Shown one piece after another: positions 16,460-45,242 of a DNA stretch of 49,961 nt. A program made the translations under genes and the position numbers. Under the pieces are notes generated by a model. It worked only from the letters and a program-made list of their open reading frames with translations. It ran no database searches and was not told where the DNA came from. This DNA comes from Frankiales bacterium (lineage in GTDB: Bacteria; Actinomycetota; Actinomycetes; Mycobacteriales; SCTD01), in the NCBI GenBank assembly GCA_025464915.1, contig JAODNF010000341.1, positions 1 to 49,961 of the forward strand. Direction: 5' to 3'. How positions within the stretch are numbered: position 1 is the first letter of the stretch; every line of letters starts with the position of its first letter.

Positions 16460-16461
16460 GG

Positions 16462-28476: not shown

Positions 28477-29492
28477 GCGTCCTCACCCTCCGACGCGTGA
28501 ACCTGACCGAGGTCGACTGGGAAGCGCTGGACGGGTTCCCGGACAGGGTGCTGTTCCAGCGCCGGCCGTGGCTGGAGTTCCTGGAGCGGAGCCACGGGGC
28601 CGAGCCCGTGGTGGCTGAGCTGCGCTCGGGCGGGCAAGCCTGCGGGTGGTTCACCGGACTCGTGACCAGGCACCTGGGTCTGCGCGTCCTGGGCGCTCCG
28701 CGACCGGGCTGGACGACGCCCTACCTCGGGTTCAACCTGGCCCCGGACGTCTCGCGCAGGGAGGCGCTCATGGCGCTGCCCTCCTTCGCGTTCCACGGCC
28801 TCGGGTGCGTGCACCTCGAGGTGTGCGACCGGTGGTGCCTGCCGGCTGACCTTGCCGGCCTGGGGGGCCGGAGGTCGGACACGAAGACGTTCGTCGCCGA
28901 CCTCCGGCCTGATCTCGACCAGCTCGCTGCCCGGATGACCAGCGGCACGAGGCAGAACCTGCGCAAGGGAGTGCGGGCCGGGCTGCTCGTGGAGGACGCC
29001 GCGCCGGAGGGCTTCGCTGCGGAGTACTACCAGCAGCTCCGGGACGTCTTCGCGAAGCAGGGCCTGTCGCCCTCCTACCCGGAGAGCCGCGTGGAGGCAC
29101 TGATCGAGGGTTTGTACCCCACCGGAGCTCTCCAGCTGGTCCGGGTGCGGACGCCGGAGGGGATGTCCATCGCGACCGGGATCATCCTGGGTGCCGGCCG
29201 GTCTGCGTACTTCTGGGGCGGCGCGAGCTGGAGGGAGCACCAGCACCACCGGCCCAACGAAGCGCTCTTCTGGTATGCCTTCCGGACCTGGAAGGGCCGC
29301 GGTGCCGAGGAGTTCGACTTCGGCGGCGGTGGCACCTACAAGCTGAAGTACGGGGCGGTCGAGCTGACGGTCCCGAACCTTCGGTGGTCGCGGTGGCCGG
29401 GCATCGAGACCGCGCGTGGCGTGGCGAAGGCGACGACGCGCGCGCGTCAGCGCACGCCGGTCATGACCGGGGCAAGACGCCAGACGGGGTGA
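28473..29492 (+). CDS. FemAB-family / GNAT-fold (Acetyltransf_6-like) transferase
   Basis: The tail of ORF 28275..29492, starting at GTG 28473 (GTGA overlap). Features: FQRRPWLEFLE, the pair of acyltransferase-like halves, and NEALFWYAFRTWKGRGAEEFDFGGGG near the C-terminus. Confidence 0.7.
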   Translation: MSVLTLRRVNLTEVDWEALDGFPDRVLFQRRPWLEFLERSHGAEPVVAELRSGGQACGWFTGLVTRHLGLRVLGAPRPGWTTPYLGFNLAPDVSRREALMALPSFAFHGLGCVHLEVCDRWCLPADLAGLGGRRSDTKTFVADLRPDLDQLAARMTSGTRQNLRKGVRAGLLVEDAAPEGFAAEYYQQLRDVFAKQGLSPSYPESRVEALIEGLYPTGALQLVRVRTPEGMSIATGIILGAGRSAYFWGGASWREHQHHRPNEALFWYAFRTWKGRGAEEFDFGGGGTYKLKYGAVELTVPNLRWSRWPGIETARGVAKATTRARQRTPVMTGARRQTG

Positions 29493-29542: not shown

Positions 29543-31306
29543 CTAGTGGCCGCCCTCGTAGGCGCCGATGTCCATCGCGGAGCCCTGCGGGCGGGGTGCT
29601 CCGTCGAGGTCGTACGCCGGGGCCTGCTGGGTGGTGCCCTTGTCGATGGCCGGGCTCGTGGTGCGGACGTGGTAGTCGCCCGTGCCGGTCGGGTTGTAGC
29701 TGACGAACTGCGGGTCGGCCGACACGGTCCCGGTGGGCACGCCACCGCCGTTGACGTCGTAGCTGCCCGAGGCGTTGCCGTAGACCAGGTTGTTCGCGTA
29801 GGTGTTCACGCCCACGCGGCCCATCTCCCGGATGCCCCAGTAGCCGTTGTTCACGACGATGTTGTTGTTGACCACGGTGCCGCTGTCCGTGCCGGGCGCG
29901 ATGTCGTTGCCCTCGAGGGAGCCGCCGATCACCATGCCGCCCTGGGAGTTCTGGAACACCGTGTTGTTGGCGATCATGACGTGGTTGGCGTTGTGCCAGA
30001 GGTGGATGCCCCAGCCGCTCGTCCGGTAGACGATGTTGTCGAGGATGCGTCCACCGTTGGGGCCCTGGTAGTAGATGCCGTGGATGAGGCCGCAGTCGCT
30101 GGTCGGCGCCATGATGTCGTGGATGACGTTGCCGATGGAGTCGACGTTGGTCTCGGAGTAGTTCTGCAGCTCGATGCCCGCACCGCCGCGCGAGCAGTCC
30201 GGCGGCACCATGTTGTGGATGTGGTTGCCGAGGAACCGGTCGTTCGACGCGGTCGACATGATGCCGCTGTACTTCGAGCCGCTGAGGTCGAAGTTCTGGA
30301 TCACGACCCAGTCACCGGTGTTCGTCCAGGCGTTGGTGCTGCCGGGCGCGCTGATCTTCGCGCCCCACTTGGTGTCGGAGACGAAGGTGATGGGTGCGCT
30401 GGACGTCCCGCTCGTGGTCGACTCGACGTAGCCGTAGCTGCCGGGCGCGACGTGGACGACCGTCCCTGCGGTCGCCACGGAGGCGGCCCTGCTGACCTGG
30501 CGGAACGGCGCGGCGCTCGTGCCGGGGTTGCTGTCGCTACCGGTGGGCGAGACGTACAGCGCCTTCGTGCCGGTGACCGGCCAGGGGCTGGTGGTGGCCA
30601 CGGCCGTCGCGGTGGGGGATGCCGTCGGTGCGGCCGTGGGGGCGGTAGTGGGTGCCGTGGTCGGTGCGGTGGTCGGTGCGGTGGTCGGGGCGGTGGTGGG
30701 GGAAGCGCTGGGCGTCGCGGCCGGCGCACTGGTCGGGGACGTGGTGGACCCGGACGGGGTCGTCGCGACGACCTCGATCCCGTTGATCTTGGCGTTGTCC
30801 GCGGTGGCGCTGAAACCGAGGTCGAGTGTGCTGTCGGTGCTGCGCACCGGGAGGGTGACGTCGTATGCGGTGTTCGCACCGATGGTCTTGACGAGGTCGA
30901 GGTCGGGCACGACGGTCTGGCCCTCGGCCGTGACCGAGAAGACCCGGGTGCCGGCGGTGGTCGCCCACGACTCGCTCATCCGCAGCGTCAGCTTGTAGAT
31001 CCCGGCGCTGGGCAGCGGGATCTTGTAGGCGCTCATCCCGTACCGCTCGGTCTGGTAGATCTTCGGATCGGCGGTACCGGAGGTCGTCGAGGTGAAGGAC
31101 GCGGCGGTCCCCCCGACGTAGTACTGGTCGGCCTGCCAGGCATGGCCGGCGCTGTCGGTGTAGGCCGGTCCGCCGGCGTTGATCCGCAGCGCCCACAGGG
31201 ACGCAGCGGCGGGGGTGGCTCCGGCGGCCAGCGCGGAGGGGAGTGCGCCGGCCGCAGGCAGGATCACGAGCGGGAGGGCGCACAGCGCGGTGGTCTTGAG
31301 GCGCAT
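29543..31306 (-). CDS. Secreted malectin-domain / Pro-Thr linker / right-handed parallel beta-helix protein (candidate polysaccharide lyase, hydrolase or epimerase)
   Basis: 587 aa. Signal peptide MRLKTTALCALPLVILPAAGALPSALA. Malectin-like block (RINAGGPAYTDSAGHAWQADQYY ... YKLTLRMSE ... FSVTAEGQ ... INGIEVV). Linker (APTT)n. Beta-helix block with repeated N/G-rich rungs (GIHLWHNANHVMIANNTV, VVNNNIVVNNG) and an ending DIGAYEGGH. Confidence 0.8.
   Translation of the reverse strand: MRLKTTALCALPLVILPAAGALPSALAAGATPAAASLWALRINAGGPAYTDSAGHAWQADQYYVGGTAASFTSTTSGTADPKIYQTERYGMSAYKIPLPSAGIYKLTLRMSESWATTAGTRVFSVTAEGQTVVPDLDLVKTIGANTAYDVTLPVRSTDSTLDLGFSATADNAKINGIEVVATTPSGSTTSPTSAPAATPSASPTTAPTTAPTTAPTTAPTTAPTAAPTASPTATAVATTSPWPVTGTKALYVSPTGSDSNPGTSAAPFRQVSRAASVATAGTVVHVAPGSYGYVESTTSGTSSAPITFVSDTKWGAKISAPGSTNAWTNTGDWVVIQNFDLSGSKYSGIMSTASNDRFLGNHIHNMVPPDCSRGGAGIELQNYSETNVDSIGNVIHDIMAPTSDCGLIHGIYYQGPNGGRILDNIVYRTSGWGIHLWHNANHVMIANNTVFQNSQGGMVIGGSLEGNDIAPGTDSGTVVNNNIVVNNGYWGIREMGRVGVNTYANNLVYGNASGSYDVNGGGVPTGTVSADPQFVSYNPTGTGDYHVRTTSPAIDKGTTQQAPAYDLDGAPRPQGSAMDIGAYEGGH
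30625..30708 (-). repeat. In-frame 12-nt tandem repeat encoding the (A-P-T-T)n linker
   Basis: Seven consecutive 12-mers of the form TCGGTGCGGTGG and variants on the plus strand. The reverse complement CCACCGCACCGA encodes PTTAPTTAPTTAPTTAPT inside CDS 29543..31306. Confidence 0.8.
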
Positions 31307-31422: not shown

Positions 31423-32547
31423 CTACCGCGCTCCCTCGTAGGCGCCGATGTCGAAGCCCCCGCCCGCCGGACGCGCCGCGCCGTCGAGGTCGTCCGCGGG
31501 CGCGCCGAGGCGGCTACCGCTGTCCAGCGCGGGGCTGCCGTCGCGCAGGTGGTAGTCGCCGTTCTGCGGATCGACGAACGCCGGGTCGCCGGACACCCGC
31601 ACCTCGGGCACGAAACCGCCCTTGAGGCGGTAGTCGCCCTGGGCGTTGCCGTGACTCAGGTTGTCGACGTAGGTGTTGGTGCCGACGCGACCCACCTCGC
31701 TGATTCCGGCCTGGCCGTTGCCGGCGACGAGGTTGTTGGTGACCAGCACGTCCGAGGCGATGCCCGGCGCGACGTCGTTCCCCTCGAACGACCCGCCCAC
31801 GGCGATGCCGCCTCGAGCGTTTCCCACGACGGTGTTGTTGGTGATGGCGATCCTGCTCGCGTTGTGCCAGAGGTGGATCCCCCAGCCGCTGCAGCCGACC
31901 ACCAGGTTGTTGACGATCCGACCGCCGTCGGCGCTCTGGTAGTAGATGCCGTGCACCCGTGCGCAGTTGCCCGGGGCCCGCACGCGCTCGACGACGTTGC
32001 CGGCCGTCGTGTTGTCCGTCGCGACGTAGCTCTCCACGACGATCCCGGCGCCGCCGCGGGAGCAGTCGGGGGCGACGATGTCGTGCACGTGGTTGCCGGT
32101 GAAGCGGCCGTGCGAACCGGTTGACAGCAGGCCGTTGTAGGTCGAACCGCTCAGGTCGAACCCCTCCACCTGCACCCAGTCCCCTGTGTTGGTCCAGGCC
32201 GTGGTCGCCCCCTCAGCGAGGACGCGTGCGTCCCAGCGCTGGTCCGAGCGGAACACGATCGGTGCGTCCGGGGTCCCGCTCCGTGACGTGACCACCGGGA
32301 GGTAGTTCCCGGGTGAGACGTGCACGAGGGTGCCCGCTCTCGCGAGGACGGCGGCCCGGCGCACCTCCCGCACCGGCCTCGCGGAGGTCCCCGGGTCGCT
32401 GTCCAGGCCCGCCGGCGAGACCCAGAGCTGCGCCCGCACGACCTGATGCGGCGAGGTGCTCGTCGACGGGCTGGGCCGGGTGCTCGCCCGGCAGCCCACC
32501 AGCGCGAGTGCCAGCAGGGCCGCCGTGCCGACTCCGTGGTGCGTCAC
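31423..32547 (-). CDS. Lipoprotein with right-handed parallel beta-helix domain (paralog of the C-terminal half of 29543..31306)
   Basis: 374 aa. Lipoprotein signal TAALLALALVGC. Shares blocks with its neighbour: PDCSRGGAGI, VHGIYYQ, SGWGIHLWHNA, GGSFEGNDVAPG and FDIGAYEGAR. GTG 32547 overlaps the Wzx stop as GTGA. Confidence 0.8.
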   Translation of the reverse strand: MTHHGVGTAALLALALVGCRASTRPSPSTSTSPHQVVRAQLWVSPAGLDSDPGTSARPVREVRRAAVLARAGTLVHVSPGNYLPVVTSRSGTPDAPIVFRSDQRWDARVLAEGATTAWTNTGDWVQVEGFDLSGSTYNGLLSTGSHGRFTGNHVHDIVAPDCSRGGAGIVVESYVATDNTTAGNVVERVRAPGNCARVHGIYYQSADGGRIVNNLVVGCSGWGIHLWHNASRIAITNNTVVGNARGGIAVGGSFEGNDVAPGIASDVLVTNNLVAGNGQAGISEVGRVGTNTYVDNLSHGNAQGDYRLKGGFVPEVRVSGDPAFVDPQNGDYHLRDGSPALDSGSRLGAPADDLDGAARPAGGGFDIGAYEGAR

Positions 32548-33933: not shown

Positions 33934-34665
33934 GTGCACGTCGATCGCAGGTCCAGGAGCACCAGCAGCCTCACCCGGGCTGCGCGCCGGGTGGCATGCG
34001 TCCACCGCTTCGACATCCTCGGCCGGTCCACCGCGGAGACGGTCCCCGACGCCCGGTCGGAGGACTACGGGGTCCAGCGGCTGACCAGCCTGGAGGACCT
34101 GCTCCGGGACGCCGACGGCGAGCACGACTCCCGGGCCCTGGACGCGCTCAAGCGCATCGCACCGATCCGACGAGCCCTGCAGGCCCGGCGGGCGCGACGC
34201 CAGGCGGCCCGCTTCGCGCAGGGCGACGTGGCCTACGTGGCGACGCAGGACGGAGCAGTCGCGGCCTGGGCGTGGGCCAGTCAGGCTGCCACGTTCCACT
34301 GCCGCTGGAGCGGCCTGCGCTTCCGGCTCGCGACCGATGAGGCCTACCTCTACGACCTCTGGTGCTTTCCCGCGCACCGCCGGACAGGCGCGGGAGTCGT
34401 CGTGATGCGGGCGTTGATGGCAGATCTGCACAGCAGGGGGGCCGCACGGGTCTACGGCTACGTGCTGCAGGACAACCGGGCGAGCCAGGTCCTGCACCGG
34501 CTCGTCCTCGGATTCGAGCAGGTGCAGGTGGTGAGCAGCCTGCGGGTCCTCAGCCACTGGGCCTGGCAGCTGCCGCGGGTGGGCCCTCAGCAGAGTGGGC
34601 CGTGCACGAGCAGGCGCGGCGGCGGGGCTGCCCGGTCCCTGGCTGACGGCCGGCGTGCCGCGTGA
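33934..34665 (+). CDS. GNAT-family N-acyltransferase
   Basis: 243-aa ORF; the true start may be internal. GNAT motif A region YLYDLWCFPAHRRTGAGVVVMRALMADLHSRGAARVYGYVLQDNRASQVLHRLVLGFEQV. Confidence 0.6.
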   Translation: MHVDRRSRSTSSLTRAARRVACVHRFDILGRSTAETVPDARSEDYGVQRLTSLEDLLRDADGEHDSRALDALKRIAPIRRALQARRARRQAARFAQGDVAYVATQDGAVAAWAWASQAATFHCRWSGLRFRLATDEAYLYDLWCFPAHRRTGAGVVVMRALMADLHSRGAARVYGYVLQDNRASQVLHRLVLGFEQVQVVSSLRVLSHWAWQLPRVGPQQSGPCTSRRGGGAARSLADGRRAA

Positions 34666-35642
34666 CTGCGATCGCCGAGAAGCGCGGACCCCTCGACTTC
34701 GACGCCGAGGTGGTGACCGAGAGGCTGGTCGCAGGCATCCGGCGGGCCGTCCGCGACCTGGGTCGCAGGGGAGCGGTCGTGGCGGTGTCCGGGGGGGTCG
34801 ACTCCGGTGTGGTCGCGGCGCTCTGCGCACGCGCCCTCGAACCGCATCGCGTGCTGCTGCTGAGACTGCCCGAGGCAACGTCCGGCAACCGGTCGTCGCT
34901 GCTCGGGCTCGAGCTGGCTGCCCGCCTCGGGACCCCCACACGCGAGGAGCCCATCGGTCCCGCGCTCGCGGCGCTCGGCTGCTACGCGCAGCAGGACGAG
35001 GCGGTGCGAGCGGTGTTCCACGACTACCAGCCCGGCTGGCCGTTCAAGCTCGTGAGGTCGCGACCCAACGGGTCGCCGACGGTGTTCTCCCTGGTCGTCG
35101 AACGGCCCGGCGGTCGACGTGAGGCGCGACGGATGCCGGCCGCGGCCTACCGGCTGCTGCTCAGCGCGACGAACACCAAGCAGCGGATCCGGACCGTGGT
35201 CAGCTACACCTGGGCTGACCGGCTGCACGCCGCCGTGGCGGGGACACCGAACCTCGTCGAGTACGACCAGGGCTTCTTCGTCAAGGGCGGCGACGGCCTG
35301 TCGGACGTGAAGCCCATCGCCGGCATGTACAAGCAGCAGGTCTATGCCCTGGCCAGGCACCTGCGGCTGCCTGAGGCCATCGCGGGACGTGCGCCCACGA
35401 CGGAGACCTTCTCGCTGCACCAGTCGCAGGAGGAGTTCTACTTCGGCTTCCCCATGGCGCAGATGGACCTCATCCTCTGGGGAGAGCGGCACGGGATCGC
35501 GGTGAACGAGCTCGCTGCCCGGGGCCGCATGTCACGGGAGGACGTGGCCCTGGGCTATGCCGAGGTCGTGCGCAGGCGGACCGCCACCGCCTACCTGCAC
35601 GCGGCACCGGTCCTCCTCGACGACGTCGCACCGCCGACCTGA
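34662..35642 (+). CDS. NAD synthetase (NadE)-like PP-loop ATP pyrophosphatase / amidotransferase, no glutaminase domain
   Basis: 326 aa. GTG 34662 overlaps the GNAT stop as GTGA. PP-loop VAVSGGVDSGVVAAL. NadE-type block TPNLVEYDQGFFVKGGDGLSDVKPIAGMYKQQVYALARHLRLPEAI ... PTTETF. Confidence 0.8.
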   Translation: MTAIAEKRGPLDFDAEVVTERLVAGIRRAVRDLGRRGAVVAVSGGVDSGVVAALCARALEPHRVLLLRLPEATSGNRSSLLGLELAARLGTPTREEPIGPALAALGCYAQQDEAVRAVFHDYQPGWPFKLVRSRPNGSPTVFSLVVERPGGRREARRMPAAAYRLLLSATNTKQRIRTVVSYTWADRLHAAVAGTPNLVEYDQGFFVKGGDGLSDVKPIAGMYKQQVYALARHLRLPEAIAGRAPTTETFSLHQSQEEFYFGFPMAQMDLILWGERHGIAVNELAARGRMSREDVALGYAEVVRRRTATAYLHAAPVLLDDVAPPT

Positions 35643-37606
35643 TGTGCGGCATCGCGGGGATCGTCCGCGCCGGGCCCGGTCGTCCGGTCGAGGAGCCGGC
35701 GCTGCTGCGGATGGCAGCGTCCCTGCGGCACCGGGGGCCGGACGGGTTCGGCCTCGCGCGGGGTCAGGCGGTGGGTCTGGTCTCGACCCGGCTGGCCATT
35801 CTCGACCTGTCCCACGGCTGGCAGCCGATGCGGTCGCAGGCCGGGTCGGTCCTGGTCTACAACGGCGAGGTCTACAACCACGCGGAGCTGCGGGCGGAGC
35901 TGTCTCGCGAGGGCGCGAGCTTCCGCACCCGGACCGACACCGAGGTCGTGCACGCGATGCTGGACCGGCGCGGGCTCGACGCGCTGGCTGCCTTCAACGG
36001 CCAGTTCGCGCTCGGGCTCTGGGAGCCGGACGACCAGCGGCTGACCCTGGTCCGCGACAGGTTCGGCGTCCGCCCGCTGCACTACGCGCTCACGGCACGC
36101 GGCGACCTGGTCTTCGGCTCCGAGGTGACCGCGGTGCTCGCGTCTGGGGAGGTCTCGGCTGCGCCGGACCTGGAGGGCATCGACGACGTCTTCACGACCT
36201 GGGGCCCTCGACCGCCTCGCAGCGCCTTCCGGGGCATCGGGCAGCTGCGACCGGGCGGCGTGCTGGTCTGGGAGCGCGGCCGGATCGTCCGCGAGGGGCT
36301 GTGGTGGCGGCCGGACGTGGCCTGCCGGGACGCCGAGCCGACCACCGACCTCGGTGACCTGCTTCGCAGCAGCGTCGGGCTCCGGTTGCAGGCGGACGTG
36401 CGGGTAGGGACGTACCTCTCGGGCGGGCTGGACTCGAGCCTGCTCACCGCGCTCGCACGCGAGGTCATCGGGCCCGACCTGCGGACGTTCTCCCTGGCCT
36501 TCGAGTCCGCGCAGTACGACGAGAGCGCGGCGCAGCAACGGGTGGCCGGTTTCCTGGGCACGCAGCACCATGTGCTCCACATCAGCGCGCGGGACATCGC
36601 GGCGGGCTTCCGCGACGCGGTGCTCCACGCAGCCACGCCCCTGGTGCGGACAGGCCCGGTGTGCATGGCGCAGCTCGCCAGGTTCGCCCGAGAGCACGGG
36701 GTCACGGTGGTCGCGACCGGAGAGGGCGCAGACGAGCTCTTCTGGGGCTACGACGTGTTCAAGGAGGTCTTGGCGCGCCGGGCCTACCTCCGCGACCCGG
36801 AGCTGACCAGCGCCTTCGACGACCTCTACCCGCACCTCGGGCACCGAGCGCGGGGCCCGGGTTGGCAGCACGCGTTCGCGGCTGCGGGCCCCGCGGACGA
36901 CCCGCTGTTCTCGCACCAGGTGCGGATGCGCGCGACCGGGTCGGTCGCGGCGCTCTACGCCCCCGACGTGGTCGCAGAGCTCGACGGCCAGAGCTCGCGG
37001 GAGCGCCTCCGGCGGTCGCTGCCACCGGAGTTCACGGGCTGGACCGATCTGCAGCGGACGACCTGGCTCGAGCTGCACACGCTGCTCGAGCCCTACCTGC
37101 TCGCCGCGCAGGGTGACCGGGCCGCGATGACGCACGGCGTCGAGGGCCGCTACCCGTTCCTCGACCACCGGGTGTTCGACCACGCCATGAGCCTGCGGCC
37201 GGACCGCAAGCTGCGTGGGAGCCAGGACAAGGCTGTGCTCCGCGAGCTCGCCGCATCGGTGCTGCCGGCCGAGATCACGAACCGGCGCAAGCAGCCCTAC
37301 CGCGCCCCCGAGGTGGCACCGTTCGTCGGACCGGACGCGCCGGAGTGGGTGCAGGACTCTCTGACCCCGACGGCCGTCCGCGCAGCCGGCCTGTTCGACC
37401 CGACCCGGGTCGAGGCCCTGATGGTCCGGTGCGGTGGGGGACGGGCGCTCGGTCAGCGGGAAGCGATGGCGTTCGTCGGGGTGCTGTCGACGCAGGTGTG
37501 GTCGGAGCAGCACTTCGGGGCGGGCGTCGTGGCGCCCGAGCAGGAGGCGAGACGGCCGAGGGTGTTCCTCGAGCTGGATGACGAGAGAGCAGAGGCCACA
37601 GCATGA
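35642..37606 (+). CDS. Asparagine synthase-like glutamine-dependent amidotransferase (AsnB family)
   Basis: 654 aa. N-terminal nucleophile MCGIAGIV, YNGEVYNHAELR, and PP-loop YLSGGLDSS. The start overlaps the upstream stop (TGATG). Confidence 0.9.
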   Translation: MCGIAGIVRAGPGRPVEEPALLRMAASLRHRGPDGFGLARGQAVGLVSTRLAILDLSHGWQPMRSQAGSVLVYNGEVYNHAELRAELSREGASFRTRTDTEVVHAMLDRRGLDALAAFNGQFALGLWEPDDQRLTLVRDRFGVRPLHYALTARGDLVFGSEVTAVLASGEVSAAPDLEGIDDVFTTWGPRPPRSAFRGIGQLRPGGVLVWERGRIVREGLWWRPDVACRDAEPTTDLGDLLRSSVGLRLQADVRVGTYLSGGLDSSLLTALAREVIGPDLRTFSLAFESAQYDESAAQQRVAGFLGTQHHVLHISARDIAAGFRDAVLHAATPLVRTGPVCMAQLARFAREHGVTVVATGEGADELFWGYDVFKEVLARRAYLRDPELTSAFDDLYPHLGHRARGPGWQHAFAAAGPADDPLFSHQVRMRATGSVAALYAPDVVAELDGQSSRERLRRSLPPEFTGWTDLQRTTWLELHTLLEPYLLAAQGDRAAMTHGVEGRYPFLDHRVFDHAMSLRPDRKLRGSQDKAVLRELAASVLPAEITNRRKQPYRAPEVAPFVGPDAPEWVQDSLTPTAVRAAGLFDPTRVEALMVRCGGGRALGQREAMAFVGVLSTQVWSEQHFGAGVVAPEQEARRPRVFLELDDERAEATA

Positions 37607-37872
37607 CGACCGTCGTTCCAGGTGTGCAGGTGCGCGAAGAGCTGCGCGCCTTCGTCGTCGAGAGCTTCCTCTACCTTCATCCCGACCTCGAGCTGAAGGA
37701 CGGCGACGACCTCCTCGCCCTCGGCGTCATCGACTCGCTCGGCTTCGTCGAGCTCGTCGAGCAGGTGGAGTCCCGCCTGGGTCTCCGCGTCAAGGACGTC
37801 GACATCACGGGGGAGAACTTCGGCTCCATCGACGCCATGGTCGCCTTCGTGGGGTCCCACCGGAGCCCCTGA
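37603..37872 (+). CDS. Acyl/peptidyl carrier protein
   Basis: 89 aa. The phosphopantetheine attachment Ser is in LGVIDSLGFVELVEQV. ATGA overlap with the AsnB-like stop. Confidence 0.85.
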   Translation: MTTVVPGVQVREELRAFVVESFLYLHPDLELKDGDDLLALGVIDSLGFVELVEQVESRLGLRVKDVDITGENFGSIDAMVAFVGSHRSP

Positions 37873-39371
37873 TGACCTCGGTCAAGGACGACCTCATCGC
37901 CAGCGCAACTGCCCGTCCCTCGCACCTCGCCGTGGCCGACCGGGGGCAGCGACTCACCTATGGAGCGCTGCTGCGGAGGGCGTCGTGCCTGGCCCGCCGC
38001 CTGGGCGAGTGCGGCGTGAAGCGTGGGGACCGGGTCGCGATCGTCATGCACAGCGGGGTCGAGTGCGCTGTCACGATCTACGCGACCACCATCGCGGGAG
38101 CGTGCTTCGTCGTCCTCGACGCGACGACGCCCCAGGACCAGCTCGTCGCCCTGCTGACCACGACCCGTGCCAAGGCGGTGGTCTGCGACGCCGCTGCCGG
38201 CCCGCGGGTGCGGGCCGCCGCTCAGGGCGTCACGCCCGTGCCCGTGGTCGTGACGGGCCTCCCGCCGGGGAGTGCAGCACCGGGCGACCAGCAGGTGTGG
38301 CAGCGGTACGGTCCGGCGCTCATCTCCACCGATCTGGCAGCGATCGTGTTCACCTCGGGATCCACCGGAGTTCCTCGTGGTGCGACGTTCCTGCACCGCA
38401 ACCTGACGTTCGTGACGTCCTCGGTGCTGGGCTATCTCCCGCTGACCGCCGAGGACCGGATCCTCTCGGTGCTGCCCCTGTCCCACACGTACGGCCTCTA
38501 CCAGCTCCTGCTGTCGGTGCGACTGGGAGCGACGCTGCACCTGCGACCCGGGGCCGGACCCGTCGGCGGCATCCTGCGAGACCTCGAGGACGAGGCCATC
38601 ACGGTCCTGCCCGGCGTTCCCGCGCTGTGGCAGCTGTTCCGTTCGACAGAGGTCGCATTCCCCGCGGTCCGGTTGCTCAGCAACGCCGGTGCTGCCCTGC
38701 CTGCGGACCGCATCCCCGACCTGCAGCGCATCTTCCCGCACGCGAGCCTCTATGCGATGTACGGCCAGACGGAGTGCGCCAGGGTCGCGTTCCTGCCGCC
38801 CGAGCTGCTGGCCTCTCATCCCGACTCGGTCGGCGTCGCCGTTCCCGGGACCCAGGCATGGCTGGAGGACGAGCACGGCCGTGAGCCGGCGTTCGGCGGC
38901 ACGGGGGAGCTGGTCGTGCGGGGGGAGCACGTCATGCAGGGCTACTGGGACGACGAGGAGGCGACCAGGCGCAAGCTGGTGCCTGGTCGCTGGCCGGGTG
39001 ACAGGGTGCTGCGCACCGGCGACATCTTCCGGCGTGACGCGGACGGCTACCTCTGCTTCGTGGCCCGGCACGACGACGTGATCAACATCGGCGGCCAGAA
39101 GGTCGCCCCGCTCGAGGTCGAGCGAGTGCTGTGCGCGGCACCCGGCGTCGTCGAGGCCGTGGTGGTCGGGACGGCTGACGGCTCGCGCGGGCAGGTGATC
39201 GTCGCCCACGTCGTCGCTGCACCGGGTGCGGTCCTGGACGCGCGGGCGCTCAAGCGGCACTGCGCGGAGCGCCTCGAGGCGAGCAAGGTGCCTCGCGAGG
39301 TCGTGCAGCACCAAGCCCTGCCCCGGCTGAGCAGCGGGAAGGTCGACCGCAAGCGGCTGGTCCTCTCCTAG
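37872..39371 (+). CDS. ANL-superfamily adenylating enzyme (AMP-dependent synthetase/ligase)
   Basis: The tail of ORF 37434..39371, starting at ATG 37872 (TGATG overlap). Core motifs IVFTSGSTGVPRG, MYGQTE, LRTGDIF, DDVINIGGQKVAPLEVE and SSGKVDRK. Confidence 0.9.
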   Translation: MTSVKDDLIASATARPSHLAVADRGQRLTYGALLRRASCLARRLGECGVKRGDRVAIVMHSGVECAVTIYATTIAGACFVVLDATTPQDQLVALLTTTRAKAVVCDAAAGPRVRAAAQGVTPVPVVVTGLPPGSAAPGDQQVWQRYGPALISTDLAAIVFTSGSTGVPRGATFLHRNLTFVTSSVLGYLPLTAEDRILSVLPLSHTYGLYQLLLSVRLGATLHLRPGAGPVGGILRDLEDEAITVLPGVPALWQLFRSTEVAFPAVRLLSNAGAALPADRIPDLQRIFPHASLYAMYGQTECARVAFLPPELLASHPDSVGVAVPGTQAWLEDEHGREPAFGGTGELVVRGEHVMQGYWDDEEATRRKLVPGRWPGDRVLRTGDIFRRDADGYLCFVARHDDVINIGGQKVAPLEVERVLCAAPGVVEAVVVGTADGSRGQVIVAHVVAAPGAVLDARALKRHCAERLEASKVPREVVQHQALPRLSSGKVDRKRLVLS

Positions 39372-39381
39372 ATTGCCTCGC

Positions 39382-40440
39382 ATGACCTACCGCGTCGTCC
39401 AGTGGACCACCGGCAACGTCGGGCAGCGCTCCGTCATCGCCGTTCTCGACAACCCGCTGCTCGACCTGGTCGGCTGCTACGCCTGGTCGCCAGACAAGGT
39501 CGGGCAGGACGTCGGGACGCTGTGCGGCGTCGAACCGGTCGGCATCCTCGCCACCGACGACGTCGAAGCGCTGCTGGCGCTGAAGCCGGACTGCGTCGTC
39601 TACAACCCGAAGTGGCCGGACGTCGACGTCATGTGCCGCATCCTGTCCGCCGGCATCAACATCGTCGCGACTGCCGGCTTCATCACGGGGCATGCCCTGG
39701 GCGACGGTCGGGCGCGCATCCAACAGGCCTGCCGCGCCGGTGGAGCGAGCGTCTTCGGATCGGGCATGAACCCCGGCTTCCTCAACCTGCTCGGCCTCGT
39801 GTCGGCCGGCATCTGCGACCGCGTCGATCGGATCACCATGCTCGAGTCCGTCGACTCGACCGGCTACGACTCGCCGGAGACCGAGCAGTCGGTGGGGTTC
39901 GGCCAGCCTCTCGGTGCGCCCGGCTTGCAGGAGCGCGTCGCCGAGGCGACAGCGGTCTTCGGAGACGCGGTCTGGCTCACCGGCGAGGCACTGGGCATCG
40001 ACCTCGACGAGGTCCGCTGCGTCGCCGAGTTCGCCACGACGACAGCGCCGGTCGATCTGGTCAGCTGGACCATCGAGCCGGGGCAGGTCGCGGGCGTCGC
40101 CGCGTCGTGGCAGGGCTGGTACGACGGTCGGCTGGTGGTCGACCTCCGCGTGATGTGGCGCAAGGGCCGGACCCTCGAACCGGACTGGAAGGTCGAGCAC
40201 GGCTACGTCGTGAGCATCGAGGGCCGCCCCAACGTGCGCACCAAGCTGACCATCGCGCCGCCCGCCGACTTCGTCGCGACGTCGGTGCAGGACTACATGG
40301 TGCTCGGGATGATCATCACGGGGCTGCCGGCGGTCAACGCCATCGCTGCCGTCTGCGACGCGCGGCCCGGGATCGTCACCTACAACGACCTGCCACTGAT
40401 CGCGAGCCGCGGGTTCGTCAGCCGGAGCGCAGCCGGGTGA
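39382..40440 (+). CDS. Dihydrodipicolinate-reductase-like NAD(P)H-dependent amine dehydrogenase family protein
   Basis: ORF 39373..40440; ATG 39382 gives MTYRVVQWTTGNVGQRSVIAVL (N-terminal Rossmann). Further blocks LKPDCVVYNP and GINIVATAGF. It lies 10 nt downstream of the ligase stop. Confidence 0.7.
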   Translation: MTYRVVQWTTGNVGQRSVIAVLDNPLLDLVGCYAWSPDKVGQDVGTLCGVEPVGILATDDVEALLALKPDCVVYNPKWPDVDVMCRILSAGINIVATAGFITGHALGDGRARIQQACRAGGASVFGSGMNPGFLNLLGLVSAGICDRVDRITMLESVDSTGYDSPETEQSVGFGQPLGAPGLQERVAEATAVFGDAVWLTGEALGIDLDEVRCVAEFATTTAPVDLVSWTIEPGQVAGVAASWQGWYDGRLVVDLRVMWRKGRTLEPDWKVEHGYVVSIEGRPNVRTKLTIAPPADFVATSVQDYMVLGMIITGLPAVNAIAAVCDARPGIVTYNDLPLIASRGFVSRSAAG

Positions 40441-40924
40441 TCTCGAGGACTCGCGGTCGGATGCCCGCCGCGAGGCCGGCCCAGAACCCGTCGGGACTGG
40501 ACTCGAGCAAGGTGCGGCTGCCGGAGCCGTCGACCATCAGGACCTGCATCGACGGTTCCCTGTCGACCAGCTGAAGCGTGACGGCGCGGATCCCCTGCTG
40601 CTCCATCAGGTGGTCGACCATCGAGTCGTGGCGCCCGCCCACGGTCTCGTGCACGGGACGGCCGGACGCGGTGCGGTCGACGAGCTCACGGATGCCGGGC
40701 GTGATGTCGATCGCCACCGACGTACCCGGCTCGAAGACGCTCTCGCTGATCGACCAGCTCGCCTCGACGACAGCGGTGTCCCCGCGCAGCGTCACGAGGC
40801 CGAGCAGCCACAGGTCGAAGCGCGGCCGGAGCTCGCCGGCGACGGACGCGACCAGCTCGTCCAGGTCGCGCGCGTCCTGCGCGTCGTTGACGGCTTGGAG
40901 CAGCAGCGCGGTGTCGAGTCCCAT
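40418..40924 (-). CDS. Hypothetical protein, possibly GAF-like fold
   Basis: 168 aa in a GC3-rich frame with no TM helix. The alternating pattern is compatible with a small ligand-binding GAF/PAS-like domain, but no diagnostic motif is present. The 3' end overlaps the convergent gene by 23 nt. Confidence 0.45.
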   Translation of the reverse strand: MGLDTALLLQAVNDAQDARDLDELVASVAGELRPRFDLWLLGLVTLRGDTAVVEASWSISESVFEPGTSVAIDITPGIRELVDRTASGRPVHETVGGRHDSMVDHLMEQQGIRAVTLQLVDREPSMQVLMVDGSGSRTLLESSPDGFWAGLAAGIRPRVLEITRLRSG

Positions 40925-40966
40925 GAGCTCACCTCACGCCGGACGGTAGCCCTCCGTGACCGGGCG

Positions 40967-41465
40967 TCAATCGCCTGTCGTGGCTACTCGCGGCAGGGGG
41001 AAGCGCTTGCGCCACAACGGCTTGCCGGTCTTCTGGTCGAGCACCTGGGCCTCGCCGTGGCCGGCGTAGGACTGAGCGCTCGCGATCACGACCGCGTAGT
41101 CCCCTGAGACGGCGAAGAAGTCTCCGCGCGGCAGTGCCGTGCGCCACCTCTTGATGAACGTCTTGGCGTCCACCTTCTCCAGCACCGGCCCTTCGCGGTA
41201 CGAGCGCTGCGTAACCACCACGAGGTCGTTGTCCTTCGTGCCGACGAGAGCCATCCCGTAGTCCAGCAACGATCTCTGGATCCACTTCAGGTGACAGTCT
41301 TGTGCGTCGACGGCGTACATCCCGCGCGAGGCTCTCCTGGACCACGATGACCCCGTTCATCTCGGTCAGCGGCCGGACCTCGGGGACGGTCCAGCTCGGC
41401 TTGCCGGCAGGGCGGAACGTGCTCGGGGTGCTCGGGTCACGAGGGCGGGTCGCGACCTGCGGCAC
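40967..41465 (-). pseudogene. Frameshifted remnant of a PQQ/BamB-like beta-propeller repeat protein
   Basis: Two minus-strand ORFs in different frames join sensibly at about 41320. The first ends ...GKPSWTVPEVRPLTEMNGVIVVQESLAR and the second starts MYAVDAQDCHLKW...DAKTFIKRW...DQKTGKPLW. Together they give four repeats of the x-G-x-x-x-W blade motif. There is no signal peptide, the total is only about 165 aa, and GC is visibly lower than in neighbouring genes. Confidence 0.35.
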
Positions 41466-41527
41466 CGTGCACAGCGCGGCGCATGTCCTCTAGACCGCGG
41501 TGTGCGGCCGGCAGTGCTGGCCCTCTC

Positions 41528-42016
41528 CTAGAAGTCGCCCGCTCCGCGACGGAGGTCCTCCAGCACGTTGACGAGGGTGGTGACGCGGCGGGCGGAGAGC
41601 CCCGGCTTGCCGAAGACCTCGGTGTTGAGGGCCTCGGTGGCTTTCAGGGCAGTACGCCGACCGGTGGTCGTGACAGCGATCAGCGTCGCGCGCCCGTCAG
41701 TGGGGTGAGGTGACCTCGACACGAGGCCGGCCGCCTCGAGGCGGTCCACAGCGTTGGTGATGGAGGTGGGGTGCACCTGCAGGCGCTCGGACGCCTTCTT
41801 GAGCGGCATCGAGCCGCGGCTGCTGAAGTGCAGCAGCATCAGCAGCTCGTACCTCGCGAAGGTGAGGTCGAACGGCTTGAGCACCTCATCGACGCGGGCC
41901 TGGAAGATCTGCTGCGCGCGCATCACCGAGGTGACGGCGACCATCCCCTCGGCCGCGTCGAACCAGCCCTCGCGCTCCCAGTTCTCGCGCGCGAGGGAGA
42001 TCGGATCCCTAGACAT
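41528..42016 (-). CDS. MarR-family transcriptional regulator
   Basis: ORF 41528..42397 trimmed to ATG 42016, which overlaps the IcmF stop by 8 nt (ATGTCTAG). Winged-helix block LTFARYELLMLLHFSSRGSMPLKKASERLQVHPTSITNAVDRLEAAGLVSR. Confidence 0.85.
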   Translation of the reverse strand: MSRDPISLARENWEREGWFDAAEGMVAVTSVMRAQQIFQARVDEVLKPFDLTFARYELLMLLHFSSRGSMPLKKASERLQVHPTSITNAVDRLEAAGLVSRSPHPTDGRATLIAVTTTGRRTALKATEALNTEVFGKPGLSARRVTTLVNVLEDLRRGAGDF

Positions 42017-45000
42017 TGCGCCGGTACTGGCCGCCGACCTCGAAGAAGGCGTCGCTGATCTGGCCGAGCGAGCAGTGCCGGACGGCCTCCATGAGCGCCT
42101 CGAAGACGTTGCCGCCCTCGGTGGCTGCCTTCTGCAGGGCAGCGAGCGCGGCGGGGGCCTCGGCGCGATGCCGTGCCTGGAAGTCGTGCAGCCGGTCGAG
42201 CTGCGACTTCTTCTCGTCCTCGGTGGCGCGCGCGAGCTCGACGGTCTGAGGCTCCTCGCCCGTCGCCGGCGGCAGGAAGGTGTTGACGCCGATGAGGGGC
42301 AGCGAGCCGTCGTGCTTCTTGTGCTCGTAGAGCATCGACTCGTCCTGGATGCGGCCGCGCTGGTAGCCGGTCTCCATAGCGCCGAGGACGCCACCACGCT
42401 GGGCGATGCGGTCGAACTCCTGCAGCACCATCTCCTCGACGAGGTCGGTGAGCTCGTCGACGACGAACGAGCCCTGGAGCGGGTTCTCGTTCATCGACAG
42501 GCCCCACTCCTTGTCGATGATCATCTGGATGGCGAGGGCCCGACGCACCGACTCCTCGCTGGGCGTCGTGACTGCCTCGTCGTAGGCGTTGGTGTGCAGG
42601 CTGTTCGCGTTGTCGTAGAGCGCGCACAGGGCCTGCAGCGTCGTGCGGATGTCGTTGAAGTGCATCTCCTGCGCGTGCAGGGAACGGCCGCTGGTCTGGA
42701 CGTGGTACTTCAGCTTCTGCGAGCGGTCGTTGGCGCCGTACCTCTCCTTCAGCGCGATCGCCCAGATCCGGCGGGCGTCGCGACCGAGGACGGTGTACTC
42801 GGCGTCCATGCCGTTGCTGAAGAAGAACGAGAGGTTCGGTGCGAAGTCGTCGATGCTCATGCCGCGGGCGAGGTAGGCCTCGACGTAGGTGAACCCGTTC
42901 GAGAGCGTGAACGCGAGCTGGCTGATCGGGTTCGCCCCGGCCTCGGCGATGTGGTAGCCGGAGATGCTGACCGAGTAGAAGTTCTGGACCTTGTGGTCGA
43001 CGAAGTACTGCTGGATGTCGGCCATCGCGCGGAGCGCGAACTCGGTGCTGAAGATGCAGGTGTTCTGGCCCTGGTCCTCCTTGAGGATGTCGGCCTGCAC
43101 GGTGCCGCGGACGTTCTGCAGCACCCACTGTCGGACCTCGGCCGGGTCGGCGTCAGGGCGCTTCTCGAGCTCCTGGTCGATCGCGGTGTTGAGGAACATC
43201 GCGAGGATCGTCGGGGCGGGGCCGTTGATGGTCATCGACACGGAGGTGGTGGGTGAGCAGAGGTCGAAGCCGCCGTACAGCACCTTCATGTCGTCGAGCG
43301 TCGCAATGCTCACGCCCGAGGTGCCGACCTTGCCGTAGATGTCGGGACGCGGGTCGGGGTCGCGCCCGTACAAGGTCACGGAGTCGAAGGCGGTCGACAG
43401 CCGGGTGGCCGGCTGGCCCTCCGACAGCACCTTGAAACGGCGGTTGGTGCGGAACGCGTCGCCCTCGCCCGCGAACATGCGGGCCGGCGCCTCGCCGACG
43501 CGCTTGAAGGGGAAGACGCCTGCTGTGTAGGGGAAGTAGCCCGGGAGGTTCTCACCCCGGAGGAAGCCGACCAGCTCGCCGTGGTCCTGAGTCCTCGGGA
43601 TCGCCACCCGCCGGACCTTGTTGCCCGACAGCGTCTCGCGGGTCAGCGGGGTGTGGATCTCCTTGCCGCGGACGGTGTAGACGAGCTCGTCGCCGGAGTA
43701 CTCCTCGACTCGCGCCGGCCACTCGTCGAGCAGCGCCTGCACGTCGGGCGAGACCGTCGTCCGGTCGAGCGCGGCCTGCAGCTCGCCGGTGTCCTGCACG
43801 AGGGCCAGTGCGGTCGTGACGTGCTGTCGCGTCCGAGCGAGAGCGGCCTGACGGGCGGTCTCGGCGTGGTAGTCGCGGACCGCCGCGCTGATCTCGGACA
43901 GGTAGCGCTCGCGAGCTGCCGGCAGCACGGAGGTGAGGTCGGTGCTGACCTTGGTGTCGACGTGCGGCAGCAGCCCGACCGGAAGGCCGAGCAGTGTGCG
44001 TAGCTCTTGGTAGAGGGCGGTGACGCCGTCGTCGTTGAAGCGGGCGGCCGAGGTGCCGAAGACCGGCATCTCGTCCGGGTGGGCACTGCTTCCCGTGCGG
44101 TTGCGGGCGACGGTGCGGGCCACGTCACGGCGTGCGTCCTCGGCTCCGCGGCGCTCGAACTTGTTGATGGCGACGACGTCGGCGTGGTCGAGCATGTCGA
44201 TCTTCTCGAGCTGGCTCGAGGCGCCGTACTCCGGCGTCATGACGTAGAGCGAGACGTCGCAGTGGTCGGTGATGGACGCGTCGCCCTGGCCCACGCCGGG
44301 CGTCTCGACGACGACCAGGTCGAACCCGGCGGCCTTGCAGGCGCTGATGATGTCGTCGAGGTGCTCGGGGACGGCGGCGTTGCCGCGGGTGGCGAGCGAG
44401 CGGAAGTAGACGTTGCTGCCGGACAGGCTGTTCATCCGGATGCGGTCGCCGAGCAGTGCGCCGCCGTGCCTGCGCCTGGTCGGGTCGACAGCGATGCAGG
44501 CGATCCGGAGCTTGTCCTCCTGGTCGACGCGCATCCGGCGCACGAGCTCGTCGGTGAGGCTGGACTTGCCCGACCCGCCCGTACCGGTGATGCCGAGGAC
44601 CTTGACGTCCTTGGCGGCCTCGCGCAGTGCCTGGGCGAGCTCGGGGGAGCGGCCGTCCTCGAGCACCGTGATGGCACGGGCGAGAGCAGCGACGTCGCCG
44701 GACAGGACGTCCTCGACTGCCGGCGGCCGTGCGGCCAGGTCGACGTCGCAGGCCGCCACGAGCGTGTTGATCATCCCGGCGAGGCCGAGCTTCTGGCCCT
44801 CCTCGGGGGAGAAGATCGTGACACCACGGCTCCTCAGCAACGCGATCTCCTCGGGGACGATGACCCCGCCCCCACCGCCGAACACCTGCACGTGGCCGGC
44901 GCCGACCTCGGCCAGGCGCTCCTTGAGGTAGGTGAAGTACTCGACGTGGCCGCCCTGGTAGGAGCTGACCGCGACGCCCTGCGCGTCCTCCTGTACAGCG

Positions 45001-45158
45001 GCCTGCACGACCGACTCGACCGAGCGGTCGTGCCCGAGGTGCACCACCTCGGCGCCCTGGCTCTGCAGGACGCGGCGCATGATGTTGATCGCGGCGTCGT
45101 GGCCGTCGAAGAGCGAGGCCGAGGTCACGAAGCGGACGGGGTTCACCGGCGTGTGCAT
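42009..45158 (-). CDS. icmF: Fused isobutyryl-CoA mutase (B12-binding domain - MeaB-like GTPase - mutase catalytic domain)
   Basis: 1049 aa. N-terminal B12 domain VRFVTSASLFDGHDAAINIMRRVLQ. P-loop GITGTGGSGKSSLTDELV. The C-terminal 550 aa have the methylmalonyl-CoA-mutase-type TIM barrel (RMFAGEGD, TNRRFK, SMTINGPAP, NTCIFSTEFALR). Confidence 0.92.
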   Translation of the reverse strand: MHTPVNPVRFVTSASLFDGHDAAINIMRRVLQSQGAEVVHLGHDRSVESVVQAAVQEDAQGVAVSSYQGGHVEYFTYLKERLAEVGAGHVQVFGGGGGVIVPEEIALLRSRGVTIFSPEEGQKLGLAGMINTLVAACDVDLAARPPAVEDVLSGDVAALARAITVLEDGRSPELAQALREAAKDVKVLGITGTGGSGKSSLTDELVRRMRVDQEDKLRIACIAVDPTRRRHGGALLGDRIRMNSLSGSNVYFRSLATRGNAAVPEHLDDIISACKAAGFDLVVVETPGVGQGDASITDHCDVSLYVMTPEYGASSQLEKIDMLDHADVVAINKFERRGAEDARRDVARTVARNRTGSSAHPDEMPVFGTSAARFNDDGVTALYQELRTLLGLPVGLLPHVDTKVSTDLTSVLPAARERYLSEISAAVRDYHAETARQAALARTRQHVTTALALVQDTGELQAALDRTTVSPDVQALLDEWPARVEEYSGDELVYTVRGKEIHTPLTRETLSGNKVRRVAIPRTQDHGELVGFLRGENLPGYFPYTAGVFPFKRVGEAPARMFAGEGDAFRTNRRFKVLSEGQPATRLSTAFDSVTLYGRDPDPRPDIYGKVGTSGVSIATLDDMKVLYGGFDLCSPTTSVSMTINGPAPTILAMFLNTAIDQELEKRPDADPAEVRQWVLQNVRGTVQADILKEDQGQNTCIFSTEFALRAMADIQQYFVDHKVQNFYSVSISGYHIAEAGANPISQLAFTLSNGFTYVEAYLARGMSIDDFAPNLSFFFSNGMDAEYTVLGRDARRIWAIALKERYGANDRSQKLKYHVQTSGRSLHAQEMHFNDIRTTLQALCALYDNANSLHTNAYDEAVTTPSEESVRRALAIQMIIDKEWGLSMNENPLQGSFVVDELTDLVEEMVLQEFDRIAQRGGVLGAMETGYQRGRIQDESMLYEHKKHDGSLPLIGVNTFLPPATGEEPQTVELARATEDEKKSQLDRLHDFQARHRAEAPAALAALQKAATEGGNVFEALMEAVRHCSLGQISDAFFEVGGQYRRNV

Positions 45159-45168
45159 CTCCCGAGGA

Positions 45169-45181: not shown

Positions 45182-45214
45182 TCGCAGTTGGCTAGTCCCC
45201 ATGTTACTTCCAAG

Positions 45215-45227: not shown

Positions 45228-45230
45228 ATG

Positions 45231-45236: not shown

Positions 45237-45242
45237 GAGCGC

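Follow-up and report, generated by a model that had tools for sequence, protein, structure and literature searches.

A conserved actinobacterial operon of a NadE-like and an AsnB-like PP-loop enzyme, a stand-alone carrier protein and an ANL ligase

What might a bacterium make with three ATP-dependent adenylating enzymes of different families, when their genes are packed together with that of a free-standing carrier protein? The question is raised by a 49,961-bp contig of a metagenome-assembled Frankiales genome (G+C about 72%; this whole stretch is called the window below), where six closely spaced plus-strand genes code for a GNAT acyltransferase, a NadE-like PP-loop ATP pyrophosphatase, an AsnB-like glutamine-dependent amidotransferase, a stand-alone acyl carrier protein (ACP), an adenylating ligase of the ANL superfamily and a protein resembling amine dehydrogenases (AmDH-like; Table 1). 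An earlier note on this DNA had taken all six for a single functional unit. Judged from sequence comparison, the conserved functional unit is the inner four-gene operon, NadE-like, AsnB-like, ACP and ANL ligase, here called the quartet, which probably builds an amide-bearing acyl group on the carrier protein. Full-text searches of the literature found no description of this quartet, and the note's statement that no characterised pathway matches the locus therefore stands.

The quartet owes its recognition to its recurrence. A pattern scan of species-representative genomes for relatives of the NadE-like protein returned at least 585 stretches, and the best 80 of these, examined for taxonomy, come mostly from Thermoleophilia (Solirubrobacterales, Conexibacter, Gaiellales), with a few Frankiales and Mycobacteriales. 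When the window proteins were compared by tblastn with 82 fetched loci, the NadE-like protein had a counterpart in 82, the AsnB-like protein in 81, the ACP in 80 and the ligase in 77, in the same order. All four genes are collinear in 77 of the 82 loci, the missing members falling mostly where the available sequence ends. Spacing is tight, overlaps or gaps of at most 9 nt between the genes being conserved: in all 72 loci measured, the NadE-like and AsnB-like genes are between -1 and +9 nt apart, and 4-nt overlaps join the AsnB-like gene to the ACP gene in 53 of 75 loci and the ACP gene to the ligase gene in 49 of 62. Catalytic residues are invariant across all four proteins (motif conservation was followed in 70-78 orthologues of each). 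Such an arrangement is far beyond chance.

The same coupling is visible in the window itself, where a third-position GC of 0.87-0.93 marks the six coding frames. Read from the sequence, the junctions are a GTGA overlap between the GNAT and NadE-like genes (34662-34665), a TGATG overlap between the NadE-like and AsnB-like genes (35640-35644), an ATGA overlap between the AsnB-like and ACP genes (37603-37606) and a TGATG overlap between the ACP and ligase genes (37870-37874); the ligase gene ends with TAG at 39369-39371 and, after a gap of 10 nt, the AmDH-like gene opens with ATG at 39382. The start of the GNAT gene is uncertain, either GTG at 33934 or an alternative GTG at 34069. The positions and overlaps proposed in the earlier note are thus borne out, and so are its six family assignments, each backed by Pfam, NCBIfam and PDB searches, and the motifs it had picked out (MCGI, SGGLDSS, SGGVDSG and DSL), which are invariant or nearly so among the orthologues.

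The two outermost genes stand apart from the quartet, each in its own way. Homologues of the window GNAT lying directly upstream of the NadE-like gene and overlapping its start were found at only three of the 82 loci (L004, L005, L039), and the coupling of this GNAT to the quartet is limited to the window lineage. The AmDH-like gene has no homologue at any of the 82 loci (tblastn). Where its relatives occur (88% and 75% identical), they sit in a different and constant order of genes: fatty-acid desaturase, phosphoenolpyruvate (PEP) carboxylase, AmDH-like, MarR, IcmF-like fused mutase, acyl-CoA dehydrogenase and hydroxyacyl-CoA dehydrogenase. Because it is syntenic with the downstream backbone, we exclude it from the cassette: it is a conserved chromosomal backbone gene with no part in the cassette, abutting an island. 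The island itself is revealed by a related locus (L083) that runs by blastn without interruption from the equivalent of window position 8151 to that of 39369, so that everything between, 31.2 kb, is absent from L083. It lies exactly between the stop of the PEP carboxylase gene and the start of the AmDH-like gene (junctions 8134-8160 and 39360-39385), and the 10-nt gap after the ligase gene is its right junction. With the backbone assignment, the suggestion that a DapB-like enzyme tailors the carrier-bound group had to be dropped, as had the six-gene unit.

Within the quartet, the NadE-like protein calls for the closest look. By family search it would pass for an NAD synthetase (NAD_synthase, PF02540, E = 5.9e-37; NF002048 'NAD(+) synthase', 377 bits against a cut-off of 313). 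Its AlphaFold2 model (pLDDT 88.7) has NadE 2e18 as best Foldseek match (23% identity, target TM-score 0.83), its ATP-site motifs are the same as those of NadE, and its PP-loop, SGG[VI]DS, is invariant among the orthologues aligned. It is without a glutaminase domain, shares 20-23% identity with solved NadE enzymes and NMN (nicotinamide mononucleotide) synthetase, and is predicted to carry an extra three-strand sheet relative to NadE, at about residues 128-157 of the model. The PSAGLW stretch of Pyrococcus horikoshii NadE aligns with APTTETFSL, invariant in the NadE-like family. Nor was a housekeeping-type NAD gene context, independent of carrier genes, found around it, the AsnB-like gene adjoining it at 81 of 82 loci. 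By these comparisons the protein is a divergent paralogue of NH3-dependent NAD synthetase, belonging to a subfamily of about 177 representatives (E <= 1e-30, clustered at 50% identity). A term search of a survey of the NAD-synthetase family (PMC3376133) found no passage on such a paralogue.

Distant relatives of the NadE-like protein also occur as fusions. One of these is a ligase::NadE-like fusion within an operon that is a permuted version of the cassette (L091:5804-11627): an AsnB-like gene and an 85-aa ACP gene are followed by the 849-aa fusion and then by a 350-aa protein, which neither has a recorded database hit nor matches the profile of the orphan neighbour family c0 described below. 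On two assemblies (L089:8001-9533 and L090:8001-9533) a 510-aa protein has a NadE-like PP-loop domain in place of the large ANL domain, followed by the C-subdomain of adenylation enzymes (AMP-binding_C), its A10 lysine replaced, and by a peptidyl carrier protein (PCP) domain of the PP-binding family with the motif GGHSL; its neighbours code for an adenylation-thiolation protein, a GNAT, a GDSL lipase, two alpha/beta hydrolases and a phosphopantetheinyl transferase. At another locus (L088) a fusion of NadE-like and ACPS domains lies downstream of a ligase gene. A further candidate, a NadE-like::GATase fusion (P0362), was discounted as a probable frameshift artefact, because its contig is full of split genes. 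Fusions to a ligase, a carrier and a phosphopantetheinyl transferase tie the NadE-like family to phosphopantetheine-carrier chemistry, and not to NAD or sugar metabolism. The replacement of the large ANL domain by a PP-loop domain, ahead of an adenylation C-subdomain and a PCP, might, on the bolder reading given below, represent a new carrier-loading or carrier-editing domain, and these PP-loop-to-PCP fusions hint at a coupling of adenylation to the phosphopantetheine arm that does without the ANL fold.

The partners are more conventional. The AsnB-like protein combines a class II glutaminase domain (GATase_7), opening with MCGI, and a PP-loop synthetase domain (Asn_synthase); it scores 418.8 with TIGR01536 (cut-off 267.1), and Cys2, R50, N74-G-E76, D99 and SGGLDS are invariant in 70-74 orthologues. 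Its closest PDB entries are the hydroxyamidotransferase TsnB9 (7ylz; E = 1.4e-54) and AsnB (1ct9), and with catalytic Cys, GATase domain and PP-loop domain it has what defines a class II Asn synthetase. The carrier protein is a stand-alone one, as the earlier note had it (PF00550, E = 1.3e-7); the attachment serine is Ser45 in the DSL motif, and Asp-Ser is kept in 74 of 75 orthologues. Its best NCBIfam model is that of AmcB, the ACP of cispentacin synthesis, at 45.8 bits, under the cut-off of 80. For the ligase, the third of the adenylating enzymes on whose presence the family searches and the earlier note agree, the best model is TIGR03098 (exosortase-A-associated ligase; 331.2, cut-off 592.35), and the PDB neighbours include adenylation domains of nonribosomal peptide synthetases (NRPS), the beta-amino-acid enzyme VinN and malonyl-CoA synthetase. 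Presumably this ligase loads the ACP.

What the ligase accepts may be read, tentatively, from its pocket. All 71 orthologues compared share Arg304 and Lys490. In a tentative, motif-anchored alignment to a GrsA-PheA fragment that reproduces the known specificity code DAWTIAAICK, Arg304 falls at the position of GrsA Ile330, and the position of Asp235 is Thr here and G, D, T or N across the family. We take the invariant Arg at the first position and the variability at the second to point to a substrate that is anionic and not an alpha-amino acid. No assembly line surrounds the pair. Pfam scans of the window from 1.1 to 49.7 kb, covering called genes of at least about 140 aa, found no condensation, ketosynthase or phosphopantetheinyl-transferase domain, and the sole Thioesterase match is a weak one (E = 3e-4) in an alpha/beta hydrolase of the flanking backbone (47301-48182); with that reservation, the claim that NRPS and polyketide synthase (PKS) domains are missing from the surroundings holds.

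From these parts a route can be proposed, to which we give a probability of about 0.42: the ligase would charge the ACP with an anionic acid, the two PP-loop enzymes would both amidate the tethered group, and a GNAT-fold enzyme would pass the acyl group to an amine. To begin with, the ligase would adenylate an anionic acid, probably one with two or three carboxyl groups, and attach it to the holo-ACP as a thioester. There is a precedent for the loading of a dicarboxylate, since AmcH loads 2-oxoglutarate on the stand-alone ACP AmcB (PMC10698177). Whatever carboxylates remain free on the tethered group would then be turned into carboxamides by both PP-loop enzymes, the AsnB-like one drawing nitrogen from glutamine and the NadE-like one from ammonia that is free or passed on by the AsnB-like neighbour. 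Finally, the amidated group would leave the ACP for an amine acceptor by the action of a GNAT-fold N-acyltransferase. In the window this enzyme would be the translationally coupled GNAT, or possibly a FemAB-like protein also encoded in the island. The acceptor would most likely be an amino sugar of the island polysaccharide, either a 4-amino-4,6-dideoxy-hexose or a de-N-acetylated sugar; in favour of this, the island has a 4-amino-sugar pathway and a polysaccharide deacetylase, and no PglD-like acetyltransferase among the scanned genes.

The neighbours of the quartet elsewhere, counted within 10 kb at 79 loci, offer other GNAT-fold candidates. The commonest is an orphan family, c0, of about 351 aa, present at 49 loci (for example L086:8876-9931, minus strand, and 48 others), where it nearly always lies upstream of the quartet in divergent orientation, at 36 of these loci as the immediate neighbour. 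Its database relatives number only 221 and Pfam gives no match; its AlphaFold2 model (pLDDT 88.9) resembles N-myristoyltransferase, a tandem GNAT (Foldseek E = 4e-15, TM-score about 0.5). Homology of c0 to the window GNAT or to FemAB-like proteins was considered and set aside, the profile-profile probabilities being 13.9% and 1%; with values so low c0 is not called homologous by sequence, and the label of tandem GNAT rests on the predicted fold. FemAB-like genes lie near the quartet at about 15 of the 79 loci, directly after the ligase gene in Conexibacter.

Several observations weigh against the proposed route. What is observed are the components, how they are conserved and coupled, and the fusions; each chemical step, with the substrate class, the order of steps and the acceptor, is drawn from family membership and context. 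Scans of the window for promoters and terminators were uninformative. About 25 of the 79 loci have no GNAT-fold gene within 10 kb and show unrelated neighbours such as FtsK, arginase or an E1 dehydrogenase, so that a dedicated transferase is either not obligatory or encoded elsewhere. The window GNAT, an Acetyltransf_1 protein (PF00583, E = 6e-9) whose nearest PDB match, a weak one, is RimI, could instead be an acetyl-CoA-dependent amino-sugar N-acetyltransferase of the PseH type. In the pocket, BLASTP shifts the YGxTE stretch of the GrsA alignment by three residues, which weakens the argument built on Arg304. The NadE-like enzyme might not carry out an amidation at all, since the carrier fusions would also be compatible with thioester formation or with a second-stage reaction on an amide. 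Lastly, glycan-type genes accompany the quartet at 23-36 of the 79 loci, about a third to a half, and the glycan acceptor may accordingly hold only for the window lineage.

This last point leads to a rival reading that we find unlikely, yet far from negligible: that the product has nothing to do with the neighbouring polysaccharide. The quartet might then modify peptidoglycan or some other core polymer of the envelope, make a lipid head-group, or yield a soluble metabolite rich in amides or a compatible solute, and its position at the island edge would be incidental. At 35 of the 79 loci the quartet sits amid housekeeping genes (thrS-infC-rplT-pheST, argCJBD), and 43-56 have no recognisable glycan gene within 10 kb; one such locus is L085, and at L086 the quartet adjoins glutamate synthase and glutamine synthetase genes. 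The pattern of conservation across Thermoleophilia looks vertical, which suggests a core function. What precedes the quartet in the closest relative (L003/L087) is a block equivalent to window 10959-20139 (dehydratase, aminotransferase, regulators); the whole Wzx/Wzy/glycosyltransferase block is absent there, as is the GNAT. In that same relative (L087), however, genes for the dehydratase and the aminotransferase persist upstream of the quartet, at a distance of about 7.5 kb and beyond the regulator block, and genes of the Wzx, Wzy_C, Bac_transf, FemAB-like and GT4 types directly adjoin the quartet in the window, in L005 and in Conexibacter. DegT-type or phosphoglycosyl-transferase genes are found near it at about ten more loci, and the count of glycan genes, being based on clusters, is a lower bound. 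The earlier note had made its interpretation depend on the cassette not recurring mainly away from glycan loci, for instance in siderophore or lipopeptide clusters. The outcome is divided: recurrence away from glycan loci is borne out by about half, with glycan-type genes at 23-36 of the 79 loci, and none of these loci is a siderophore or lipopeptide cluster. In the window itself, the glycan setting agrees with the gene content of the island.

The earlier note's own reading, in which the enzymes act separately on sugars, is improbable. It had the AsnB-like enzyme amidate a uronic acid in the manner of WbpS, the NadE-like enzyme form an acetamidino group in the manner of PseA/WbpG, the ligase-ACP pair supply an acyl or aminoacyl group of its own, and the AmDH-like enzyme tailor that group. 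AsnB-like genes are common in O-antigen and extracellular polysaccharide (EPS) loci, the nearest specific NCBIfam model for the window protein is an amidotransferase of the XrtA system, and the island holds amino-sugar genes and a nucleotide-sugar dehydrogenase that makes a uronic acid likely. But that dehydrogenase has no homologue at the 82 loci, the quartet stays coupled in genomes that have neither a sugar dehydrogenase nor glycan genes in its vicinity, the NadE-like protein is a member of the NadE family and not of that of WbpG and PseA, its relatives are fused to a ligase, a carrier and a phosphopantetheinyl transferase and not to sugar-modifying domains, and the AmDH-like gene is part of the backbone. 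Uronate amidation and amidino formation thus lost their footing once both PP-loop enzymes turned out to be tied to the ACP and ligase, including at loci with no glycan gene within 10 kb. Far more remote still is the notion that the NadE-like protein is an ordinary NH3-dependent NAD synthetase that happens to lie beside an AsnB/ACP/ligase trio. The score above the curated cut-off of NF002048, the NadE fold and the ATP-site motifs would allow it; against it stand the low identity to characterised NadE, the inserted sheet, the APTTETFSL at the position of PSAGLW, the strict synteny and translational coupling with the trio, the carrier-domain fusions of its relatives and the lack of NAD-pathway genes nearby.

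The route of carrier loading, double amidation and transfer can also be taken further. In a bolder version, which we hold to be doubtful, the quartet would be a widespread and unrecognised actinobacterial pathway in which the NadE and AsnB paralogues both act on a carrier-tethered polycarboxylic acid, giving a di-amide, or an amidine- or nitrile-bearing acyl block, and in which interchangeable GNAT-fold transferases (NMT-like, FemAB-like or simple GNAT) install the product on envelope polymers.

Table 1. Features of the window and of its island, in window coordinates.
Feature	Positions	Strand	Family matches and remarks
GNAT acyltransferase, single-domain	33934-34665	+	PF00583; lineage-specific partner of the quartet
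NadE-like PP-loop ATP pyrophosphatase	34662-35642	+	PF02540, NF002048
AsnB-like glutamine-dependent amidotransferase	35642-37606	+	GATase_7 + Asn_synthase, TIGR01536
Stand-alone ACP	37603-37872	+	PF00550
ANL adenylating ligase	37872-39371	+	AMP-binding + AMP-binding_C
AmDH-like protein (amine dehydrogenase / 2,4-diaminopentanoate dehydrogenase)	39382-40440	+	PF19328; flanking backbone, outside the cassette
Island	8152-39368		blastn against L083; regulators, amino-sugar genes, Wzx/Wzy-type polysaccharide locus, cassette at the right end
Small phosphoglycosyl transferase, DegT-type aminotransferase, PglF/WbpM-like 4,6-dehydratase	9638-13455	-	Bac_transf, DegT_DnrJ_EryC1, Polysacc_synt_2
FemAB-like protein (Acetyltransf_6)	28473-29492	+	PF13480, E = 7.6e-14; TIGR03019, 30.5 bits against a cut-off of 260.35

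As to the island that carries the cassette, its regulators are of the ANTAR, LuxR, sigma-factor and GGDEF-EAL types, and its glycan genes code for GT2, GT4 and a third glycosyltransferase, a Wzy-like polymerase, Wzz and Wzx, besides the nucleotide-sugar dehydrogenase, the polysaccharide deacetylase, the FemAB-like protein and two secreted beta-helix proteins. Together, the phosphoglycosyl-transferase, aminotransferase and dehydratase genes of Table 1 would make a 4-amino-4,6-dideoxy-hexose, the candidate amine acceptor; no PglD-like (left-handed-beta-helix) N-acetyltransferase was seen among the island genes scanned. The two beta-helix proteins are right-handed paralogues (29543-31306 and 31423-32547, both on the minus strand), one with an N-terminal malectin domain, and may be polysaccharide lyases, depolymerases or epimerases; similar proteins lie near the quartet at about seven other loci. 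No tRNA was found at the island ends, and no integrase among the genes scanned. The site is variable, since in another relative (L084) three other genes occupy it. An 11-mer, CCTCTCCTAGA, occurs twice in the window (39362-39372 and 41522-41532; 0 expected by chance), and by eye the likeness extends to 16 of 17 nt, CTGGNCCTCTCCTAGA. Both copies lie at right-hand junctions of segments absent from L083, the 31.2-kb island and a segment of 1.1 kb (40420-41526), and each is followed by a backbone-aligned TAG. The shorter segment contains on the minus strand (40418-41320) two open reading frames (ORFs), one of 168 aa without family match and one of 117 aa with a weak PQQ_2/BamB-like match; the 168-aa ORF converges on the AmDH-like gene and shares 23 nt with its 3' end.

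On the backbone side, the AmDH-like protein has the DapB-like Rossmann domain and the DAP_DH_C domain that define native amine dehydrogenases (PF19328, E = 4.9e-12, 46.3 bits against a cut-off of 23.3), with 7xdu and the AmDH4-type entries 6g1h and 6g1m as PDB relatives (E about 1e-17 to 2e-17); an exact-sequence look-up of the protein returned no record. Its neighbourhood (window 39382-47233) is kept in at least two other contigs, with MarR, an IcmF-like fused B12 mutase that includes a MeaB domain, acyl-CoA dehydrogenase and 3-hydroxyacyl-CoA dehydrogenase, and this conserved setting may be a clue to the physiological role of native amine dehydrogenases. Farther away, a GH25 muramidase with LGFP repeats and then a bacterial serpin are encoded at 1927-4551 (+).

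If the proposed route is true, the quartet is a new way to amide-bearing acyl decorations on polysaccharides or cell walls; to our knowledge, few enzymes are known for amide-bearing N-acyl substituents of amino sugars. The annotation of genomes is also concerned. Many Actinomycetota carry a quartet gene automatically annotated 'NAD(+) synthase', for which the context indicates carrier-protein chemistry, and reconstructions of NAD synthesis in these genomes may therefore be wrong. As the quartet is compact, cytoplasmic, highly conserved and present in cultured Conexibacter, it is directly testable in vitro with four proteins.

How, then, does the quartet compare with what is known? Taken singly, its two PP-loop enzymes have familiar relatives. 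With NadE and NMN synthetase the NadE-like protein shares fold, SGGxDS PP-loop and ATP-site motifs; it differs by its identity of about 20%, the inserted three-strand sheet, the changed PSAGLW stretch, its linkage to the quartet (beside the AsnB-like gene at 81 of 82 loci) and the carrier fusions. WbpS, and OxyD, which makes a malonamate starter unit, are tailoring amidotransferases of the AsnB family. The window enzyme has the intact Cys2 glutaminase and PP-loop synthetase domains of such proteins (AsnB, TsnB9 7ylz), but is tied to a carrier protein, a ligase and another PP-loop enzyme. The AmDH-like protein resembles native amine dehydrogenases and 2,4-diaminopentanoate dehydrogenase (AmDH4 6g1h, 6g1m) in its DapB-like N-terminal and DAP_DH_C domains, whereas its conserved neighbours, PEP carboxylase, MarR and the IcmF-like fused mutase, place it outside the cassette.

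As a system, the quartet is unlike an NRPS or PKS assembly line, no condensation or ketosynthase domain accompanying the ligase and ACP among the scanned genes of the window. In AmcH/AmcB (Cfa5/Cfa1), of cispentacin and coronafacic acid synthesis, a stand-alone adenylating enzyme likewise loads a dicarboxylic acid on a stand-alone ACP (PMC10698177); by contrast, the window ACP scores under the AmcB cut-off (45.8 against 80), there are no ketosynthase/chain-length-factor-like (KS/CLF-like) partners, and the proposed chemistry is amidation, not the formation of a C-C bond. Closer in composition is the set found in XrtA/PEP-CTERM EPS loci, where an ANL ligase (TIGR03098), an ACP, an AsnB-like protein (TIGR03108) and a FemAB-like protein (TIGR03019) come together in a polysaccharide locus. 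These models, 'hypothetical equivalogs' for uncharacterised proteins, are the best specific NCBIfam models for the window ligase and FemAB-like protein and the second best for the AsnB-like one. Even so, the window scores stay far under the cut-offs (342.5 against 816.9 for TIGR03108, 331.2 against 592.35 for TIGR03098, 30.5 against 260.35 for TIGR03019), the window host is Gram-positive, and no exosortase was seen. The XrtA set is not known to have a NadE-like member, and it includes a decarboxylase dependent on pyridoxal phosphate and two hydrolases, which are absent from the window cassette. In D-alanylation of teichoic acids by DltA/DltC, finally, a stand-alone ANL ligase also loads a carrier of about 80 aa encoded next to it, and an envelope polymer is decorated. 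The differences lie in the missing MBOAT protein (DltB) and DltD among the scanned window genes, in the DltC model, which gives the window ACP 18.4 bits against a cut-off of 68, and in the ligase of the quartet, without the conserved Asp that binds the alpha-amino group (the position equivalent to Asp235, Thr here and variable in the family). The transferases proposed here are cytoplasmic GNAT-fold proteins, and the quartet brings two PP-loop amidotransferases that Dlt lacks. We therefore rate the quartet as carrier-protein-dependent acyl tailoring to which two PP-loop amidotransferases have been added.

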